From Hydrolagus affinis (taxonomy: Eukaryota): a stretch of 64,000 nucleotides of DNA. The translations under genes and the position numbers were made by a program. Within the stretch, counting starts at the first letter, position 1, and every line of letters starts with the position of its first letter. Positions 4,690-62,202 of this stretch are shown here, one piece after another. The DNA is taken from assembly GCA_012026655.1 (NCBI GenBank), contig JAAILG010000856.1, positions 1 to 64,000 on the forward strand, given 5' to 3'. Below the pieces are notes generated by a model, which had not been told where the DNA came from, did no database searches, and worked only from the letters and a program-made list of their open reading frames with translations.

Positions 4690-5625
4690 TACAATACAAA
4701 ATACACATAACATTTGTAAAACATTGGGGGAACATCCCAAGGCCCTGAACAGTCGGGGATTAGGATCAGGGAGGGTGGAGGGCAGAGAGACCGAAGGTCT
4801 GGCTGACGTTGGTAGGGCAGGCCAGACGAGGGACATACAGCATGCTGGAGGCTGTTGAGCGGAGAAGTTGATAAGTGGTTAGCAAGTCGGGAGAGGTAGA
4901 AGTGGGAACGGCCATGGAGGGCCTTGAAGTTGACGACAAGGATTTTGAACTCAATCATCTGAGGGATGGGGAGCCACTGTAGTTGGGCGACAGTGGGTTT
5001 GATGGGGTCATGGAGCCTGGTGCAGGAGAGGACATGAGCTGCAGAATTCTGGATGATCTGCAGCTTGTGAAGGGAAGTGTTGGGAAGGCCAACAAGTTGG
5101 CTTAGTCTTGCCTGGATGTAACAAAGGCATGTATGAGGATTTCGACTGCTTGAGGTTTGAGACAGTGGCAGAGTCCAGCAACATTACAGAGGTGGGGGAA
5201 GGCAAAGTAGGTCATAGCCTGGAGATGGGGGAGAAAGGAGTTGAGGGTCGAACAAGATGTCATCTTACATGTGGAAGTTAACCTGCCAAATGTCACCAAG
5301 AGGAAGCATGTACAGGTTGAAGAGCAGAGGACTGAGGGCAGAGCCCTGAGTAATACTGCACAAGATGATGCGGGGACTGGAGGAGAAACCATTTGTGGAG
5401 ACAAAGTGGAGCCGGTGTGAGAGATAAGATCTGAACCATTAAGGACAGACCTTGAAGGTTGAGGAAAGAGGAGAGGTGGTGGAGGAGGTTCATAAAATGG
5501 CTCATAAAGGGAATGACATGAGAGGAAGGAGCAAAGCTGGGAAGCAGCAACTCTTTCAAGGACCTTGGAAAGGAAAGAGGTTGGAGATGGGGGTGGTAGT
5601 TTGTGAACAGGGATAGGTCCAAGAA
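4690..5625 (-). mobile_element. Degraded L2 LINE 3' fragment
   Basis: SFLSKVLERVAASQL, EILIHAFVTSRQD and IEFKILVVNFKALHG are L2 ORF2 motifs in several frames. Confidence 0.85.
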
Positions 5626-6551
5626 AAGTTTTAAATACTGTTTGTGCATCAAATTCAGGTGTTAATTGATGTATTAAATCGATTCTATGCATGTTACTGA
5701 TGATGGGTAACACTGTAGTGGGTATTGCAACAACAACTTGCATTTGTATAACACACTTAGCAGAATCCTCAACCTCTAGGAACTCCATCCCTCAGTCTCT
5801 CCATCTCGCCCCCTCCTTCAAATCCCGCCTCAAGACTCTCCTCTTCAATAGTCCCATCGGCAACTCCTAATCCCCCACTTCCCTCCCCCACCTGTCACCA
5901 GCTCGGGTCTGACTTGGTGACTGTCCAGCAACTTGGGACATCCTCCTCACGTGAAAGGCGATATACAAGTGTAATTTTGTTGTTGCTGGAGGTAAGGATT
6001 TGAATGCCACCAGTGACCAACTCCACTCACTATATCGGAGTGATATCAGAGTGGGATGTTTCCCGCCACCAATTATTCCAATAGAATCATGTAAATTTAC
6101 AGCACAGCACAGAAGCAATTCATTTGGTTTGTCGTGTGACCTACTGGCTCTCAGAACAAACTAATTACGGAATTAAACTGTTAGTGAGCTCTGTATATAT
6201 AAAAAGTGTAGAGTTCCAGGCAGCAGTTTATTCGTTTGAAGTGGTTCAAGAGAAAATATGTTTTTTTTAACATCGGCATCAGGCCAAGCAAGGTTCTTAG
6301 TGCAGCTGAAACATTGATTCCCTATGATGTAGTGGTTTGGGGAGCAAGGCTCACATTAAATATATGTCCCCAAAGTCCATTTTTGCAGCGTAAACTGCAC
6401 ATTGATTTCGTCCACAAACGGTAGTTAATTGATCTGAACTTTACAGAGCAAAGAAATAAAAACAACAAATTACATTTGCACAGCAAACAAAAACAGAAGT
6501 AGCTAGGAACACTCAGCAGGTCAGGCAGCATCTATGGAGAAAGGAAAAGTG

Positions 6552-27327: not shown

Positions 27328-30066
27328 TATTGTAATGCAGCCCTCTAATATTGGGAGTTCCAGACATCTAGTTCTTATATTGGGGTCCCAGAAACCTATG
27401 CTCATTATTGGCAGATCCTAGTATCTCGGCCTCCAGCATTAAGGGCCCAATAAAATAAAATAATAAAGTTAACAACTTTTCTGTCAAAAAAGGGATAAAC
27501 TAGCAATTAGCTGTTAGGTCTGCAGTGGAGCATTCATGTTTCTAGTCCAACAGTGAGTCTGACTTAGAGCTGGGTTTAGGCTACCCTGGAGCTCAGAAGA
27601 GCATCACTTCATATTGCGCCAGGGGTATTAAATATCCTTCTCTTCTCTCTGCCACATTGGGTACTCATCTTTGGAGAAAGACTTAACTCAGAGCCAACGT
27701 AATAATGTAGGAGCGTAAGTCACAAGATTAGATGAAAAGTGAGTCGTCATGATATCTCTTTGTTATAGCACAGAGGAAAATCAGATAGTCCGCATTTCTC
27801 AAAACGACTCATGAAGTCATTTATTAAAGAAACACGTTCAGTAAGGTATGGTCCAGGATCAATGGATACTCAATAAGTCTTTTCATCATTTAATGTAAAA
27901 TGTCATCACAAAAGTAAAACCCAATGTGGCAGAGAGAAGAGGATATTTAATACCAGTTGACTTCTGTAAGAGCTATTCTACAGATACAGCTTTAGAAACA
28001 GATGTTATGTGGCAGACCAGATTTTGTTTCCAAATAATGGGCCCAATTCAAATAATGGGGTGGAGCTCTATCAACTAACAGAAAGACTTCTCCTTGTTCC
28101 ACACATTCGCTATTGTGCTGCATTCACACCAGTTGTCAACACTGCACTCTTGCTGAATTCCAGTCCAATCTACATGCGAAAGCACACTTTCTACGGGCAT
28201 CCAAAAAGCTGCAGTTCCTTCTGATGTAAATTTGCACAGAAATTGTGCCGCTCATTTAATTTCAATTCAAATGAAGAAAGATTGCAACATTGAAATCTTG
28301 GGAGGAAACTGTAGTGTAACAGCAAACCAAATGGTTTTCAATTATGCACATTTATACAATCTAAATTCCTGCGGTTTTTGCCTCTAATGAGCCATTTTTA
28401 CATTAATCTGATGTAAATTATAGATCTTAATCTTGGTATGAAGCTGAACAGAAATGAACTTTTTCACTGCTGTAAAGTTTAGTACTCCCAGTTACTCATT
28501 GTCTCATTTGTGCTAAACAGTAACAAATTTGCATATACAAGAGTTATGGTTCTTGGCAAATGTATTAAAATGGATTATCTCGATGGCAGAGGGGAACACA
28601 TAGCTATTTTTTGGCATTGAGATGCAGCTTATTGACTACCTTAATTATAACCCTGGGCTTTAGTTTGTGGTGTTTTGCAATAAAGCTATCTAGAGGGACT
28701 CCAGAGTTATAAATTGGGATTTCTCTCAATAACCGGTAGAGCATTAAATCGATTCCACGATCTACTCTTGCTGCTACCAGAGCCAAGTTCCCGCAGGTCA
28801 GTCTGATGCACCTCCCATTAAAGGAAGGTTATGTCAATTGCTGCTTAGAGCACTTACTAATGTGCCTCCATGAGAACACGAGATTGGTAGGCAAAATAAG
28901 ACCAAGGTTCATCTAGTTTGCCTTCCATCGTCCTTAAATGTCTCTCTGGGGAACATTTAGACATTTAACTTTCATTTGACTTTCGCAGGTCATCTTTCTC
29001 CTCCCACCACCAGCTTAGGTGCCAAAGCCAGTGTCGTTCAGTACTTGGGCATCCTAACAACATGAAAGGCACTAAATAAATGTAAATTTACATTGCATTA
29101 CATTGTATTGATTCCAGTCGCAAATCTGGGCCAATTGAAACCCCGTTGCAACCCACAAAAGCATTACACATATTTCCTAATACATTACCTCTGTTTGTGT
29201 GCCTTGCTTTAATGCAAATGTGTGTATTTCATAGAAAACACCAACGCTCGACGAGTGACTTCAAATGACCAGGGATTCAGAATGCTGTAAGCTGCCCTAA
29301 CCCTCAGCTCAGACTACTTTAATCTTCACAGGGATATTGAGCAGATGGTGAGGAATGACAAATAGGTACAAACTGAATGGAATTTGGGGCAAAAGTGCAT
29401 GTTTCAAAAATCACTGTAAAACACTGTCCACTCGAGCAAGGCTGTGACCTCCAATTGAAGTTGAAGCAGGCACGTGTGTGTTAGACGATCTGAGGCATAA
29501 ATGGCGCAAAACTGCAACCAAACTCATGCCTCAGAGCTTGTGTGTGCAGTTCATTTGTGAACACACACTCACTCACTCACTCACTCGCACACACACGTCA
29601 CTTTGCTGCCTCATGCACTGGAAAGTGTTCATATTTACACTTCGCAAAGGAAATGAAGGCAAATCTGTATTCCCAACTTCACATTTCTGATCGGCTTTTA
29701 GAATGACTGTTATCCTTCGACATAATTAAAGCAACTTAACTCCATTAAAACCTGGGGACACTTTAAATCTGAAATCAAAATACCGTACGGAAGGAGATGT
29801 AGCCCTCTCTTTCTCACATGAAAGCACTGCATGGGGTTTGAATAATTGGGACTTTGAACTTTATTCACTAAAGCAGCTGACGTAAGGAAGAGAATAAAAT
29901 GATTGCACCACTTATTTCAGTATTTACATTATCGGGCTTTCTCTACAGGCGAGTGGTTCATCACAATGGTTTCAGCAGTTTCACCGACAGCCAGCCAGCC
30001 ACAGGAGAAAGTACAGACGTCAACTTAAGAGACACTCGTGGTACTGTGATACAACAGAAAAACATC

Positions 30067-30072
30067 ACTTAC
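30067..30072 (-). other. 5' splice donor GTAAGT
   Basis: TGG|GTAAGT, a perfect consensus donor right after the W21 codon. Confidence 0.92.
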
Positions 30073-30135
30073 CCAAAATATTAGGTTGAAAAGAAACATC
30101 ATGTACTTCAAGCAGCAGAGACAGCCTCTTGCCAT
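30073..30135 (-). CDS. TSPAN9: Tetraspanin-9, first coding exon (canonical start; 21 codons, N-terminal tail and start of TM1)
   Basis: Translates MARGCLCCLKYMMFLFNLIFW, which I recognise as the TSPAN9 N-terminus. ATG at 30135-30133 in context GCAACATGG; phase-0 GTAAGT donor at 30072-30067. Acceptor CCTTTGTTTTCCTTTTAG ends at 30153, giving an 80-nt exon (30152-30073) with 17 nt of 5'UTR. Later exons were not found in the window. Confidence 0.95.
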
Positions 30136-30408
30136 GTTGCACTTCTTGAATTCTAAAAGGAAAACAAAGGATAGATCCAGGTAAAAGACCACATATTTGC
30201 TGCCTTTGGGAGCAGTATATTTATCGTTCTTTACGCCGATGCCAGTGTGGCTCTCTGTGCGTGAGCCATTATTGCCGTAGAAGGCTCCAGCTGTAAAGCC
30301 TCGACCAAACTGCCTGCCAGAGGTGTCTGCTCTGGCAAAGTCCGAGTCCCTGCTCTCCACAGAGGGGCTCCGATGAATTGAGGATTCCTCGCTACTTGAC
30401 TTCTCCAT
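30073..30408 (-). CDS. TSPAN9: Putative long TSPAN9 isoform first exon, 91-aa N-terminal extension (MEKSSSEESSIHRSPSVESRDSDF...KYVVFYLDLSFVFLLEFKKCN)
   Basis: Stop-free frame from ATG 30408 (GAGAACATGG, A at -3 and G at +4) into the canonical ATG. In-frame TAG just upstream at 30447-30445. Non-repetitive, protein-like sequence inside a TE-free island. Confidence 0.65.
30153..30186 (-). other. 3' splice acceptor (possible branch point, polypyrimidine tract, AG) of the canonical TSPAN9 ATG exon
   Basis: Minus strand reads TTTTACCTGGATCTATCCTTTGTTTTCCTTTTAG|AATTCAAGAAGTGCAACATG. Confidence 0.8.
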
Positions 30409-30589
30409 GTTCTCCTTGTTTTTCACAGTTTTCACATTCAATGTCTAACATGTCTTAGTATTTTGAACAGATCGAAGAATATCAGGCGCTTTGGTCTCTA
30501 ACCTAACCGAGCAACTAGAGGTCACACAGAACTTTGTAAATAGTATGAGCAGCATTCACAGTATTATTTCCTTCCATTTTCCTCCATCT

Positions 30590-31140
30590 ACAAGCAGCTG
30601 TGGGATGGCATTCCATGTGCAGATCAAATCTATCAGCATCCCATGAAACACATTACCAACTAGTGCTGTAGGCTCGGCAATTCAGAGCACAGCTTCGTTC
30701 ACAGAGGTCCTGAAATTCCTGCTTGTCCTCTCTTCTCCGACTGTCCTCTGACAGTTAAGATCTACAGCTGGTCATATCATCCATACTCCAAAGGCTATGT
30801 ATAGAAGCACGGCAGCCTTTCCCAGACTCGCTCGCTATCCCTCACATGCTTTTTTCCCCCCCTCTTTACTGCCTCTTCCTTCAGGAATCAGCTGTTCAAT
30901 CTCTCTCCTTGCTGCTGCACTGCTGCTGATGTGGAATCATCAGCAGCTGCTATTACAGCACTGGGTATTCCCACAGAAACCACTGACCTAACCATCAAGT
31001 ACTACAGCCCCTTTTGGAACCACTCCCACTGCCCTGCATCTTCCAATGACAAGCCAGTCTCTTTTTTTAGGTGGGGGATGATAGTCTAATCATTTTTCTC
31101 TGTGACTGTACAAGTGCTAATGCAGATCACTATTTAGCTG
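30590..31140 (-). promoter_or_regulatory. Candidate internal promoter / 5'UTR for the long TSPAN9 isoform
   Basis: TE-free sequence upstream of ATG 30408. Four CAGCTG E-boxes (30595, 30765, 30889, 30944), an MCAT-like CATTCC (30609) and a purine-rich leader on the minus strand. Motif-level evidence only. Confidence 0.35.
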
Positions 31141-32596
31141 TCACGGAAAAAAAGGGATAGTGTATACAGTACTAATAATAATCTATCAACTGAAATCAAG
31201 AACTATCTTGTGAGAACAAAAAAATGTGAGTGTCAGCTAGACTGCAGTCATATTGACTATGCAAGTTCAAATCAATTCCTCACTGACAATGCAGATTGGG
31301 ACTATCCCCTTTTCATTAAATACTAAAATTCTAATCTGAAGAATTCAACTGCACAGGATATGGGAATTATACATAAGCAGTTAAAATTGCACGCTATATG
31401 TCTTTGTGTTGAACACTGAAACTGTCTAGGTTCCAGTGCTTTTTTAAGTAACTGAATTTAAAGCTGTTATATGGTTATACAGTATAGTAAAAGGCATAAA
31501 TTCTTGAAATCAAGCACCTATAGGTTTATAAAGGTTAGGAGCTCTACATTGGTAGACTATTTTATACTAGCTACACAGTATCTCAATTATACAACATGGT
31601 GGAATAAGGAATAAGGGTTATCTTATTTTAATAAGTGTTGGAAATAAACATGGAAATTTTGCAGCCATTCAGCTGTGAGTGAATAATTTGTTCATTCCTC
31701 TGTGTGGCATTTTCAGAGTAGTTTCTTTCTAAATTACTGCATTAAAACAAGTGACTACTGCTAAAAACGTTATGTCAGATTAGAGGAGATTGTGTTTGCT
31801 GATGTAAGTGGTCACTGAAAACAAAATCCCCAAAAGCCCATTTAATTTCAGTGAGCATCTCCAGATCACAATGTTACACTGCAACATAACAGCAAAATAC
31901 AGCATTTCATCAATGTTGGATGCATTGTGTGGGAATACCATTTGAAGCCCACGGAGTGACTGCAGTGACATAAGCTCAAAAACTAAAATGTTCTCACGTC
32001 AAGTATGGAAGGACAAATTTCACATTATACATGCATTCTACCGGCATTTTATTACAGCATCGGCCCAGCATTACTTTCATGTTTGCATGGAGTCCCGAGT
32101 ATAAAAAGCAAAGACAGATGGAAATAGATACCGAGTGTCTAGAACACTAGACAACAGCAGGTTACAGCAAAGATGCGTGAAGGGTACAAGGATGCCAAGG
32201 AGCCAAATGCAAGGGCTGGAATACCCAGCCTGATAAGGAGGACAGAAAACAACGACAACAACTTGCATTTATTTAGCGTCTCTCTCGCAGGGCAGCATCC
32301 TAGAGACTCATTGACAGAGGTCAATTTGTGGCAAAGAATTATTCCCAATTTTATCAAACTACATTAATCCCGGTAGACCGCCTATTCTCTCTCTTTTTCC
32401 ACTCCCTCACTCTGCAAAAAGGACTGATTTCTTTGGTTTAATGTCCCAACCAAATCACGTCACCTATGACAATGCAGCACTCAGCAATGCATTGGAGCGG
32501 CAGCCTAGTCTGTGTGTTCAATGTACTGAAATTCTGCTGACAAGCAGGGAACAGTTTTGAAGTACAGTATTTCAAACTTGTGTTACTAATTCAGAC

Positions 32597-41029: not shown

Positions 41030-42806
41030 CTCAGGAGTATCATTAAAAAGTTTTAAATATTGGACATTTCAAGAGAAAAAAAATAAAAGGAGGCATGGTA
41101 AAAATAAAAAGAGCAGGACACTGGAAACTAATAGAAGTGCTCGCAATAGAGTAGATAGAGAAGATATAAAAATAATATTATAATAATAATCTTTGCATTT
41201 GATATAGCGTCTTATCAGTCTTTTTAAGATATCTCAAAGCGCTTTACAGAACATATTGTAAATTGGCGTTCTGTATATTGTGAATTGGACTGACTGTATC
41301 TTGTGGGTGAAATCGGCAGCTAAGCAGAACTGTGGAGGTGGTTGAATGGCCTGTTTCTATACTGCAATTTCCATATACAGTATACTGTACTGTACTTTAT
41401 TAATGTAAAAATTGCAACTCAGGTCAGGAGGGAGGGAAGTTTCAGGGAAGTTACAAATCCTCCATGGCTGTTTCTGGGGTATTGCTGTATGTAAATTAGC
41501 CTCCATAATACACATTCGCCAGACTTTACAGCAAGCTCTGTGAAGCATTTTGAGACATCGTATAGGTATGATAAGGCTCTATATCAAATGCAAGGATTAT
41601 TATTAAGGATTATTATTAAGGATTATTATGTATTACTGCCCTGTGCACATGGGCTGCTGCTTTCACCAGCAAAATGGACTTTACAGTGACTCTTGTGAAT
41701 TGCATTGAGATGTGCTCCCAATGTGAAAGGCAGTAAGTATATCAAATACAAAGATTATTATTCTTAGTAAGAGCTTGCACATTTACCAACACAAATTAGG
41801 ATTTATGTATGTCTTGCCTTGTTGGCTGGTGTGCTTCTATTAGTCAATGGCAAAGAGGAAACTAATAGAAGTGCTGGCAATAAAGCAGGACATTAGCAGG
41901 AACACGCACCTCTGACCAAAACTCTAAAATATAAGTAAATCAATCCCGCTACAAAGGGAACTAGAACTGGTAGTAAATTAAGAAGGTGCGCTCTCTCTTC
42001 CTTATATTCATTACAGTGTATTATATTATATTTGCCCACAAATATACAGTCAATTCACATTACAGTATATTCTGTGAAGCGCTTTGAGATGTTTAGAAGA
42101 CATGAAAAGCGCCATATCAAATGCAAGGATTGTTATTATTTATATTATTATTACATAGACTGCATCTCTGCTGTATTTTCATGAGCTAAAATAGCCAGGT
42201 TGCATTATTTTCAAATGATCCTCAAAAGATTATCAGCTTAACACAATCTCCGACCTTGATACAAAATTCTGAGGAATAAACATTCTATGGCATTAGATAA
42301 TCATAATTGTCGAGTTAGGGATATAAACTGACAAGAGCCTAAGTGTATTTGAACACTCCAACAGAGAAGATCAGAGTGTAGTCTGAGTATAGTCTGGCAA
42401 CAGAAGTGTCTTGGAGACAGTCTATGCTTAGAAGCTGCTGCAAAACAGCCTAACAGAAATAGATCTGAGGGGCAATGCTTTTTCATGAGTAACAAACTGG
42501 ATACCTTATCCTGCGTGAGTCAAGATCACAACCAGCAAACTACATATAAACCAGGCAACCATTACTAATTCAAAGCAATATTTGCCAAATAACGTTCTTT
42601 ATTACAGAGTGAAATCTCTCAACCCGGAAACAAATTTTAAAATAGACAAATGGCAAAGTAGGTTCGAGGAAGGAAATCCACATCAGTCACAACACTACAC
42701 ACTGGTGCTACAACAATTTTTTTATGCTGCAGAAAGCAGCACCTGATATCATTTCCATATCATAGTGATGTAGATGGGATAATAATAATCCTTGCATTTG
42801 ATATAG

Positions 42807-43428
42807 TCTTCCTCACCTCCAATACCTTCCAATACCTCACCCCAAAAGCCGCTGAAACCTTGGTCCATGCCTTTGTCACCTCTCGGCCGGACTATTGCAA
42901 TGCCCTCCTCGCCGGTCTCCCCTCCACCACAATCCAGCTGATTCAAAACTCTGCCGCCCTCATTCTCACCCACACCAAACTTCGCTCCCCCATTACCCCA
43001 ATGCTTGCCAGACTTCACTGGCTCCCTGTCCCTGAGAGGATCGACTTCATGATCCTCACCCTTGTTTTCAATCTCTTCACTCCTCTGCACCCCACTACCT
43101 CTCTGATCTCCTCCCTCCCCAAACCAGTACCCACTGCCTTCGCTCCACTTGGTCTGGCCTCCTCCAGGTCCTCCGAATCCTCCACTCCACCCTGGGCGGC
43201 CTTGCCTTCAGCCACTATGCCCCGAGGCTCTGGAACTCCCTTCCTCATTCCCTTCGCCTCGCTCCCTCTCTTCCCAGTTTCAGATCACAGCTAAAGACCT
43301 TTCTCTTCGACCGCACCTTTGGTCACCTTTCTACCCCGGCCCCTGGCTCGGTCCCGGGATCTGTTACCATGAAGTGCTCTGAGATGCCGTCCGGCGTGGA
43401 GGACGCTATATAAATTGAAGTTGTTGTT
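42807..43428 (+). mobile_element. L2 3' fragment nested in a SINE
   Basis: VHAFVTSRPDYCNALLAGLP..LHWLPVPERIDF; ends in GCTATATAAATTGAAGTTGTTG. Confidence 0.9.
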
Positions 43429-43639
43429 TTCGAGACATCTTAAAGCACTTCGTAGAATATACTGTGAAGTGAATTGACTGTATATTTTATGGGCGAAATG
43501 TGCTGGCCAATTGCGCACAGCAGTGTCCAACAAACAGTAGTGGATTGAAATGGTCAATTTATAAAATTTTTTGAAAGAATTATTACCCCTGGAAAGCGAT
43601 CTGCCAATCGACTAACAACCGGATTCCTAGGTACAGTAC

Positions 43640-44236
43640 TACAGACACTGGCAGCATCAACCTCCATGGAATTCACACTCTACCTCAACAAGTCAGTCAA
43701 GGAACCCAGGTGTCTTGTTCGATCCTCAACTGTCTTTTCTCCCCCACATCCATGCCATGACCCGCTCTGCCTTCCTTCACCTCTGCAACATTGTAGCAAG
43801 CTCCGCGACCCCATCACCCCGATTCTCTCCCGACTCCACTTCCCCTCACTCAGATAATTCAATTCAAGATCCTGGTTCTCACATTCAAAGCCCTCCAAGG
43901 CATTGCCACACCCTACCTCTGCAAACCTCCAAACCCCCTACCAACTTGTCCGTTCCCTCCACTCAGCCATCTCCAGCCTGTTCTATGTCCCCCGACCCAC
44001 CATCGACAGGCGAGCCTCTGTCCCCAACCTTTGGAATTCCATCCTGCAATCCCTACTCCTCACCACCAAGTCCTGTCTCAAGACCCTCCTCTTTGACCAT
44101 GCCATTGTTCACCCACCTTCCCGTCCCACCTCCCCGATCCCGACTCCAGCTCGGGTCCAAAACACTGACTATGCAGCTCCTTGGGACGTCCTCCTGACGT
44201 AAAAGGCGCTATACAAATGTAATTTTGTTGTTGTTC
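43640..44236 (+). mobile_element. L2 3' fragment (second subfamily tail) nested in a SINE
   Basis: FDPQLSFLPHIHAMTRSAFLHLCNI; tail GGCGCTATACAAATGTAATTTTGTTGTTG. Confidence 0.85.
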
Positions 44237-59588: not shown

Positions 59589-60102
59589 TCAATCGATCCA
59601 TGACTGTTTGTGGGATGCTGCTGTGCACAACTGGCTAATGCGTTTCACGCGCAAAATACAGTCAATTCACTTTACAGTATATTCTGTGAAGTACTTTCAG
59701 ACATCTCGATTATGTGATTAGGCGCTATGTCAAATGCAAGGATTTTATTAATAATATTATTATTATCATCACATTGCAGAGCTAATTCGCACATTGCAAT
59801 GTATACACTTTCATTAAATTTCTCAGCCCTGGTACATACTGTATAAGGATATTAAATGTAAACTTGGGTACCACGTTGCTGTAGGGTTGATGAGCAAAGT
59901 CAAGGATCATCATTCTTTTTATATTAAAGTGACCCCCAAGCTTTGTCTTTTCCAAGGCAGTTCCTTTAAGCACTCACTCCTTCACTCACAACAATACAGA
60001 TCTCTCTCCTCTTACCCTAAGCTGCTTTGCTGGGCTGAATGATTGGAAGCCAACAATTACCCTGCTTTAACCATTTGTTACTGGATCTCATACTGTATTT
60101 GT

Positions 60103-62130
60103 ACAACAACAACAACAACAACAATTTTGATTTATATAGCGCCCTCCACACCGGACGGCGTCTCTGAGCACTTCACAATAGCGGATCCCAGGACCAAGCC
60201 AGAGGCAGGGGTAGAAAGGTGACCAAAGGTGCGGTCGAAGAGAAAGGTCTTCAGCTGGGATATGAAACTGAGAAAAGAGGGGGCAAGGTGAAGGGAGTGA
60301 GGAAGGGAATTCCAGAGCCTTGGGGCATAGTGGCTGAAGACCTGGCCGCTGAGGGTGGAGTGGAGGATTTGGGGAACATGGAGGAGGCCAGACCCAGTGG
60401 AGTGAAGGCAACGGGAGCTGGTTTGAGGAGAGAGGAGATCAGAGAGGTAGGGGGGTGCAGAGGAGTGGAGGGATTTGAAAACAAGGGTGAGGATCTTGAA
60501 GTCGATCCTCTCGGGGATAGGGAGCCTGTGAAGTCTGGCAAGGACTGGAGTAATGGGGGAGCGAAGTTTGGTGCGGGCGAGTATGCGAGCGGCAGAGTTT
60601 TGGATGAGTTGGATTTTATGGATTGTGGTGGAGGGGAGACCATCAAGGAGGACATTTGAATAGTCCAGCCATGAGGTGACGAAGGCATGGACCAGGGTTT
60701 CAGCGGTTTATGGGGTGAGGTATTGCCGGAGACGGGCAATCCGTTGGAGGTGGAAGAAGGCGATGCTGCTGAGGGACCGGATGTGGGGGAGGAAGGACAG
60801 TTGGGGATCGAACCTGACGCACAGGTTCGGAGAGTTTCAGGGGGAGACCAGGAAGGTGGAGGAAGTGAGAGCCATGTGAATTGAGACGTTGATGAGAGTC
60901 AAAGAGTATGGCTTCCGTCTTGTCGACATTCAGCTGCAAGAAATTTGTGCTCATCCAGCTCCTGATGTCTGACAGGCAGGCTGACAGAACATCAGGGGAC
61001 TGAGGGCTGCAAAGTGAAGTGGAGAAATAGAGTTGGGTATCAACTGCATACATGTGGAAGTATGCCCCATGTCTGCGGATGACATCCCCAAGAGGGAGCA
61101 TATAGCTGAGGAAGAGGAGGGGGCCAAGTATGGATCCCTGGGGTACCCCACAGGTAACTGGGTAAGAGTGGGAGGAAAAGCCGTTTGTGGAGATGTACTG
61201 CTGGCGGTTTGTGAGGTAGGACTCGAACCAGGCGAGTGCGGTCGCACTGAGGTGGATGACGGTGGACAGGCGGTGGAGGAGGATGGTGTGGTCGACTGTG
61301 TCGAATGCAGCGGACAGGTCCAGGAGGATAAGGAGACAGAGGGAGCCCTGATAGAGATAGAGAGGACGTCATTTGTGACTTTTACAAGTGCAGTCTCTGT
61401 ACTGTGGGCAAGGCAGAAACCGGACTGGAGGGGTTCGAAGAGGGAGTGAGAGGAGAGGTGGGTGCGGAGTTGGTTGGCAACAATGTGTTCCAGTGCTTTT
61501 GAAAGGAAGAGCAGATTAGAAATAGGTTGGTAGTGGTTAGGGTTTGAGGGATCTAGTGAGGGTTTCTTAAGGAGGGGGATGATGGCAGCAGTTTTTAAGG
61601 GGGCAGGGACTGAACTTGTGGAGAGGGACTGGTTAATGGTATCCACACCGGACGGCGGTGGTTGGCTTCAAGGAGGTGAGAGTGCGTGAGAGGGAGGAAA
61701 GAGAGACTGGAGAGAAGGAGTGTAGGAAGGGGGTCACGGGAGGAGTTGATGATGGGGTGGGTGAGGGAGATGGGGGTGGTAGAGGGTGACGAGAGGCAGG
61801 AGGATGAGGCTGCCTGGCGGATATTTTGGATTTTTGAGGAAATGAAATCCATGACCTCCTCGCACTTCGCATTTGAAGTGAAGATTGAGGAGGCCTGAGG
61901 GGGTGCACGGAGGAGATGGTGGGTAGTGGAAAAGAGGACTTAGGGATTTTTGTTTGCCTCCAGGATAATGTTGGAATAGTAGGCCATTTTTGCTCGACAC
62001 AAAGAACGGTGGTAGCTGTGGAGATGCTTGAGCCACAGTTGGTGGTGAACCGTAAGGCTGGTTTTCTGCCACCTGCGCTCGAGCAGCCGGGTTTGGGCTA
62101 CTACATGTTTGGTAGTAAAACGAAGTAATT
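60103..62130 (-). mobile_element. 5'-truncated, frameshifted L2 LINE (ORF2 reverse transcriptase remnant)
   Basis: Frames encode PLLKKPSLDP..YQPISNL.FLSK, LQSGF..HSTETALVKVTND, the GVPQGS region and FHMYAVDTQLY (degenerate YADD). 3' tail GCGCTATATAAATCAAAATTGTTGTTG. Confidence 0.95.
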
Positions 62131-62202
62131 CTGCTCCTGAGCAATGAAAAAACAATAAGGGATATTAGGAGAGAGCTGGAAAGCCACATTAATAATGATA
62201 GC

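Follow-up and report, generated by a model that had tools for sequence, protein, structure and literature searches.

A 64,000-nt stretch of DNA from the chimaera Hydrolagus affinis (hereafter, the window) carries a TSPAN9 coding exon on its minus strand; the remaining coding exons lie outside the window, the next one on a different contig (G000:C705:33501). The exon's donor follows directly after 30073, and 91 codons are open from an ATG at 30408 to the canonical ATG at 30135. At the short isoform's acceptor, the polypyrimidine tract and AG (ending at 30153) are also in-frame codons for SFVFLLE, part of the hydrophobic stretch YVVFYLDLSFVFLLEF. An earlier note, made from the letters alone, had described this dual reading, together with an in-frame TAG at 30447-30445 and a strong Kozak context for the upstream ATG, and the sequence bears out all three (GAGAAC-ATG-G, that is, A at -3 and G at +4). 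Scanning the 45 nt preceding the acceptor gave no AG dinucleotide, and a TTTAC in this region fits the branch-point consensus and is a candidate branch point (Table 1). By itself the open frame is weak evidence for coding: at least 103 open codons lie behind 1.5% of codon positions in the window, and 97-codon openness occurs at 8 of 51 acceptor-like site and phase combinations, the TSPAN9 site included. The TSPAN9 frame stands above chance because the extension is conserved and because RNA reads cover it. Elsewhere in the window short repeats are abundant, and broken LINE-type reverse-transcriptase fragments were seen by eye in six-frame translations at 60100-62200, 42600-44200 and 5100-5800.

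Table 1 Landmarks of the TSPAN9 exon and its surroundings in the window
Feature	Positions	Strand	Basis
In-frame stop TAG upstream of the extension ATG	30445..30447	-	Sequence
TSPAN9 91-codon N-terminal extension (long isoform, 330 aa in total)	30136..30408	-	Frame and homologues
Portion common to both isoforms	30073..30152	-	Canonical ATG at 30135; 15 spliced reads at 30073
Polypyrimidine tract and AG, 3' splice site of the short isoform	30153..30170	-	8 spliced reads
Branch-point-like TTTAC within the F75-Y76 codons (candidate)	30181..30185	-	Sequence
Invariant segment K71-YVVFYLDLSFVFLLE-86 over branch region, pyrimidine tract and AG	30151..30198	-	63-protein alignment
Conserved RSPSxDS-type motif, residues 13-19, predicted phosphorylation site	30352..30372	-	Conservation
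5' leader of the long first exon, 15 upstream ATGs	30409..30947 (upper edge approximate)	-	Stranded reads and ATG list
Five CAGCTG E-boxes over the inferred start site and leader	30288..30949	.	Lead only

The 112 residues encoded in the window match the beginning of a 330-aa UniRef entry, A0A4W3JLW3, with 100% identity; the entry is labelled as tetraspanin 9a of Callorhinchus milii. The 330-aa protein P0001, which begins with these same 112 residues, is a tetraspanin and a TSPAN9 orthologue, with a PF00335 score of 199 bits against a cut-off of 32, four transmembrane helices and a CCG-bearing large loop; its structural model is closest to CD53 (6wvg, Foldseek E 1.5e-14). It groups with TSPAN9 and not with TSPAN4 in a tree of the core (support 100, quick method) and in one of the extension (92/91). 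A 2019 survey of tetraspanin isoforms gives TSPAN4 and TSPAN9 N-termini of 11 residues (PMC6773723). The short form has the short N-terminus of a tetraspanin and the long form, with about 100 residues before TM1, does not; the extension matched nothing in Pfam or the ESM Atlas. That long isoforms might already exist as gene predictions, as the earlier note guessed, proved right and understated, since the mouse has a curated 330-aa RefSeq record (NP_001366065.1, 'tetraspanin-9 isoform a'), and there are a partial human record (KAI2563827.1) and many XP_ entries labelled 'isoform X1'. Long sequences are therefore already in RefSeq, Ensembl and UniRef, with their function apparently unstudied. 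In the open-access literature searched, we found no description of the long forms, the motif or the overlap with the acceptor; nor is the extension described in the passages covered of PMC4433240, PMC8260223, PMC12324277 and bioRxiv 2024.12.23.630108, of which PMC8260223 mentions for Tspan4, without detail, an alternative first exon event that is uncharacterised. What appears to be undescribed is an ancient extension shared between genes, in which the motif over the acceptor exceeds the transmembrane helices in conservation.

To characterize use of the acceptor, we placed raw reads from a stranded RNA run, 27% of which was read. Forty-one reads were placed (36 at >=99% identity), all on one strand. 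Depth was above zero in every bin of 30063-30947 and zero in 30948-31400 and 29650-30062, so that coverage does not extend beyond the exon as retained-intron sequence. Eight reads splice in at 30153/30152 from other sequence, 15 leave at 30073 and continue in the next exon, and unspliced depth persists past the acceptor, at 4.1 over 30181-30239. Both RNA forms of the exon are thus present in one sample, and the earlier note's proposal that the same bases end an intron in one isoform and are retained in another holds at the RNA level; its stipulation that a lack of transcripts over 30408-30153 would sink the idea is answered by reads covering that interval. The sequence entering at 30152 has its match (2 mismatches in 30 nt) in an exon of 77 nt that lies 47.4 kb upstream (G000:C856:77566-77642) and is flanked by AG and GT, which puts the short-isoform intron at 47,413 nt from G000:C856:77565. 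Because this exon has no ATG, the short form starts at 30135, and its in-frame stops bar coding from any earlier exon. No read was long enough to assign the 30073 junction to one isoform, and none of the 41 placed reads spans both the extension and the next exon. In a distant fish, contigs from a single run include one that runs through the acceptor and another that splices at it; the loose end of the former translates to a stretch present in a teleost extension.

Read depth over the leader is low, about 1-4. At its 5' edge, near 30947, the only loose read ends are adapter, and the sharpness of this edge argues against pre-mRNA. A related-species contig (X1) covers 30073-30932 in one piece and ends against adapter letters, its status as RNA being a guess, and contigs of two studies end at 30819-30932, a weak hint on the start site. 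We infer a promoter near 30930-30950 that would drive the long form. One of the 15 upstream ATGs overlaps the main ATG out of frame, and as a group they may suppress or regulate long-form translation in the source species. CAGCTG occurs five times in 660 nt against about 0.3 expected (30 across the window), in a stretch picked after the fact; the cluster may point to control by bHLH factors, for example myogenic ones. The leader is well conserved in a related species, with 20 differences in total across 30073-30932, and in two great-ape records (P0013 and P0149) the open frame extends about 240 codons further upstream.

Other splice arrangements were seen around this exon. An exitron, an intron with both ends inside one coding exon, was considered and rejected, as the reads contain no joints within 29650-31400. 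Three predicted records (P0091, P0096 and P0307) are exitron-like: they keep the Ser-rich tail and splice from the interior of the extension to the acceptor, which removes the hydrophobic motif. This splice form was not seen among the reads at the TSPAN9 locus. A 500-aa RefSeq model (P0384) joins TSPAN11 to TSPAN9 at the acceptor at 30152, which would imply tandem TSPAN11-TSPAN9 read-through; TSPAN11 exons sit on other contigs of the assembly. The window does not contain the upstream portion of another protein, P0114.

The earlier note overlooked that TSPAN4 and a lamprey gene bear the same extension. Searched among longer proteins, the extension matched 142 of 206 candidates, with about 110 of the 120 listed covering it and identities of 44-87% among the listed matches, from sharks to primates. 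A ray TSPAN4 extension matched 135 of 141 candidates, mostly TSPAN4 and again from sharks to primates. A word-free search of 1.84 billion representatives gave 54 matches, TSPAN9- or TSPAN4-type. Being common to TSPAN9, TSPAN4 and the lamprey gene, the extension is most likely older than TSPAN9 itself. Trees of the extension alone and of the core (the latter by the quick method only) both separate TSPAN9, TSPAN4 and lamprey with the minimum of 2 changes; since both split cleanly, the extension most likely predates the TSPAN9/TSPAN4 duplication, as far as trees without an outgroup can tell. Annotated orthologues contain none of the stops or frameshifts that the earlier note had named as grounds for doubt, and their length changes keep the frame. 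Judged from these annotated proteins, in-frame conservation of the extension reaches from lamprey to mammals and holds for TSPAN9 and TSPAN4 alike. Because similarity to the extension was what retrieved the homologues, the sample is biased towards carriers and lineages that lost the extension are invisible to it.

Within the extension, conservation is concentrated over the acceptor. Among 321 collected proteins, 284 carry the motif in 9 variants, with 252 reading YVVFYLDLSF[VI]FLLE; the 37 without it, which the tally of variants omits, are short isoforms, fragments and internally spliced models. In a 63-protein alignment (A1), mean column identity is 0.97 for the motif, against 0.89 for the TM1 region, 0.85 for TM2, 0.84 for TM3 and 0.70 for TM4, so that no other part of the protein is as conserved as the 15 acceptor-overlapping residues; 13 of the 15 columns are at least 95% conserved. 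The first 22 residues follow at 0.73, and the linker, with its in-frame length changes, at 0.40 (extension length 82-103 aa, 5th-95th percentile), a blocky pattern of the kind seen in proteins. SPS is present in 280 of the 284 motif-bearing proteins, 153 of which have RSPSLDS, and this site is probably phosphorylated, as its conservation suggests. A second teleost TSPAN9 copy (P0097-P0111) has a far more diverged tail and keeps SPSLDS and the motif. Four TSPAN4 records from rays and one record from a gar have Leu or Val in place of the canonical Met (P0093, P0185, P0186, P0189 and P0315), which fits reliance on the long form; the short form may be lost there or begin at a near-cognate start. 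Speaking against a universal extension, in the chimaera assembly itself (G000) a TSPAN4-like first coding exon (L003:94-156, on G000:C123156) is identical to shark TSPAN4 at 17 of 21 positions and has an in-frame TGA two codons upstream; it may be a third paralogue, or else the extension has been lost from TSPAN4 in chimaeras. Neither another copy of the motif nor TSPAN4 extension DNA was found in this assembly, which is fragmented enough that absence does not follow.

What might the conserved segment do? We read residues 1-86 as a cytosolic tail with a hydrophobic element that does not span the membrane, given the element's 15-residue length, central Asp and basic flanks and the rarity of sequons. 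In two AlphaFold models there are four helices, residues 1-80 have pLDDT below 50 and a weak helix covers 79-90; confidence for the hydrophobic segment is low. The segment would sit beside the cysteines that precede TM1, likely without crossing the bilayer; a membrane-embedded role for residues 72-86 is conjectural.

An alternative that we regard as unlikely, if the best of those weighed, has residues 71-86 docking a soluble partner. The loose PP1-binding RVxF pattern is [RK]-x(0,1)-[VIL]-x-[FW], and K-Y-V-V-F fits it; on this reading the long forms would be subunits that target the phosphatase while anchored in the membrane. KYVVF is found in 221 of 235 distinct extensions and the other 14 keep K-x-hydrophobic-V-F; the models place disorder upstream of it, and alternate positions of the segment are all strongly hydrophobic, with a strand moment of 1.11 against a helix moment of 0.71. 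The loose pattern is present in 233 of the 235 extensions, yet it is a weak match because a control, KYLMF of TM1, fits it too, in 86 places among 196 core sequences. Moreover, Tyr at position 2 falls outside the stricter RVxF consensus, and 15 invariant residues exceed what an RVxF site needs.

It is more doubtful still that the segment is a fifth transmembrane helix that would place the Ser/Gly-rich N-terminus outside the cell, the strong form of the extra membrane segment raised in the earlier note. Kyte-Doolittle hydropathy over the 15 residues (1.99) comes close to that of TM1 (2.25), and there is a weak likeness to the start of TM1: for an 11-column profile the best core match is the TM1 start, with 8 of 5000 column shuffles as good. 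However, this likeness fades to 71 of 5000 shuffles at 13 columns and 1850 of 5000 at 15, and hhalign gave 13% to TM1 and 14% to TM3. The segment has only its 15 residues, one of them the central Asp, and ends in Glu; over 19 residues its hydropathy is 1.24, against 2.1-3.4. A rough estimate puts its insertion energy at +3 to +6, whereas the four core helices range from -4 to +0.9. Both flanks are net positive (+2.7 and +1.5), there is no conserved sequon (an N-glycosylation sequon occurs in 28 of 235 distinct extensions), and neither AlphaFold model has a fifth helix. By predictions from helix length, hydropathy, charge bias and structural models, the long form does not look like a five-pass protein, and a true fifth helix is disfavoured.

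In a related species the stretch of the open reading frame has 3-7 differences in 341 nt, a bound worked out from contig totals, with no gap; over 453 nt of intron there are 43 differences, and 44 letters fall in gaps. Between the chimaera and a distant fish, 2 of 86 nt differ over 30125-30210, against 8 of 52 in an ordinary coding exon, for a single pair of species and with the similarity biased upward because the run was found through shared words. Part of the invariance of the motif is forced by splicing, and constraint probably acts on both protein and RNA. A reading in which it falls on RNA or DNA alone (splice signals, promoter or enhancer), with the long transcript poorly translated and amino-acid conservation a by-product, would draw on those 84 identical nucleotides, on the 15 upstream ATGs in the leader and on the lack of extension peptides in the proteomic supplements searched. 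We rate it a shade below a fifth helix. Against it, length changes occur in frame only, the ATG and RSPSxDS block are conserved 220-250 nt from the acceptor, and two old paralogues both keep the motif, apart from a conservative V/I swap. Where splicing would favour pyrimidines, Val/Ile, Asp and Lys codons that contain purines are retained, the second Met is lost in some TSPAN4 records, and no RNA structure is predicted over the acceptor (z = +1.44).

The peptide check proposed in the earlier note came back empty: no extension peptide was found in the main texts searched or, as far as covered, in the supplements of PMC11296937, PMC3621391 and PMC5684139. In the PMC3621391 supplement Tspan9 does not appear at all; a heart dataset that includes TSPAN9 has only 239- and 271-aa entries, the long form not being among those listed; and in the PMC5684139 supplement the TSPAN9 group is headed by a 271-aa entry. 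Judging by conservation, the long form is in all likelihood translated.

That the reads derive from unspliced pre-mRNA, or that the long exon is internal by way of a second acceptor near 30947, is very improbable: intronic reads do occur in single-cell polyA libraries and low depth at the 5' edge could conceal fewer than three junction reads, but depth falls to zero on both sides of the exon while a DNA-like contig runs through, loose ends at the edge are adapter only, and a second acceptor would yield the same long protein anyway.

Taken together, we consider it probable that this is a dual-use exon under a promoter switch, from which a long tetraspanin with a cytosolic tail is made starting at 30408. 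In some transcripts 30152-30073 is joined to the distant non-coding exon; in others it is the last part of a longer exon, which is likely the first. Translation of the long transcript from 30408 would give a tetraspanin of 330 aa, with its extra tail predicted on the cytosolic side. Its residues 1-70 would be a disordered, Ser/Gly-rich tail bearing the conserved kinase-type RSPSxDS site, and residues 72-86 a short hydrophobic element dipping into the inner leaflet or packing on the four-helix bundle. Promoter choice would then toggle TSPAN9 and TSPAN4 between tailless forms and tailed, phospho-regulatable ones that differ in shape or partner set.

More tentatively, and as a possibility that we would not favour over its negation, TSPAN4 and TSPAN9 may share a promoter-switched long form predating the split of jawed and jawless vertebrates, in which the 15-residue segment over the acceptor, possibly a duplicate of the TM1 start, would serve as a phospho-controlled membrane wedge or docking site that retunes curvature sensing and partners in specific tissues. 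If so, the E-box cluster hints at muscle, and studies with 238/239-aa clones alone would have missed the long form. If long forms are made, TSPAN4 and TSPAN9 each come in a tailed version too, which has a likely signalling site and a segment whose conservation exceeds that of their transmembrane helices. Proteomic searches on databases without the long entry are blind to the extension, and variants just 5' of the annotated acceptor, now called intronic, would be splice and missense variants at once.

How does this compare with known systems? The annotated long TSPAN9 isoforms (A0A4W3JLW3, NP_001366065.1, KAI2563827.1 and the XP_ X1 records) are the same sequence or its orthologues, and canonical TSPAN4, TSPAN9 and CD53 have the four-helix core in common with long TSPAN9. 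Large cytosolic tetraspanin tails are known from TSPAN10, with its long N-terminus, and from PRPH2, with its C-terminal amphipathic helix, which according to PMC6773723 enters the cytosolic leaflet and affects curvature. These tails resemble the long form in kind but show no sequence similarity to the extension, all 54 matches to which are TSPAN9- or TSPAN4-type, with none in Pfam. TSPAN4, which has been studied in migrasome formation, is a sensor of membrane curvature and does its sensing through its shape (PMC9618112). Given curvature sensing by shape in TSPAN4 and the inner-leaflet helix of PRPH2, we prefer, by analogy, a role in which the extension would change the shape or partners of the tetraspanin.

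At the level of the gene, the closest counterpart is the hybrid exon, in which coding sequence over the acceptor is expected. Like members of that class, the TSPAN9 exon has an incoming upstream junction (8 reads) and a shared downstream junction. Hybrid first/internal exons, which some transcripts use internally and others as their first exon, and which have a long flanking intron, are described as a common class in PMC8769537, one supplement of which does not name TSPAN4 or TSPAN9. The TSPAN9 exon differs from the class in that its 5' extension adds 91 codons, in that no part of the protein is more conserved than the one its acceptor encodes, and in that two paralogues and lamprey have retained this arrangement.
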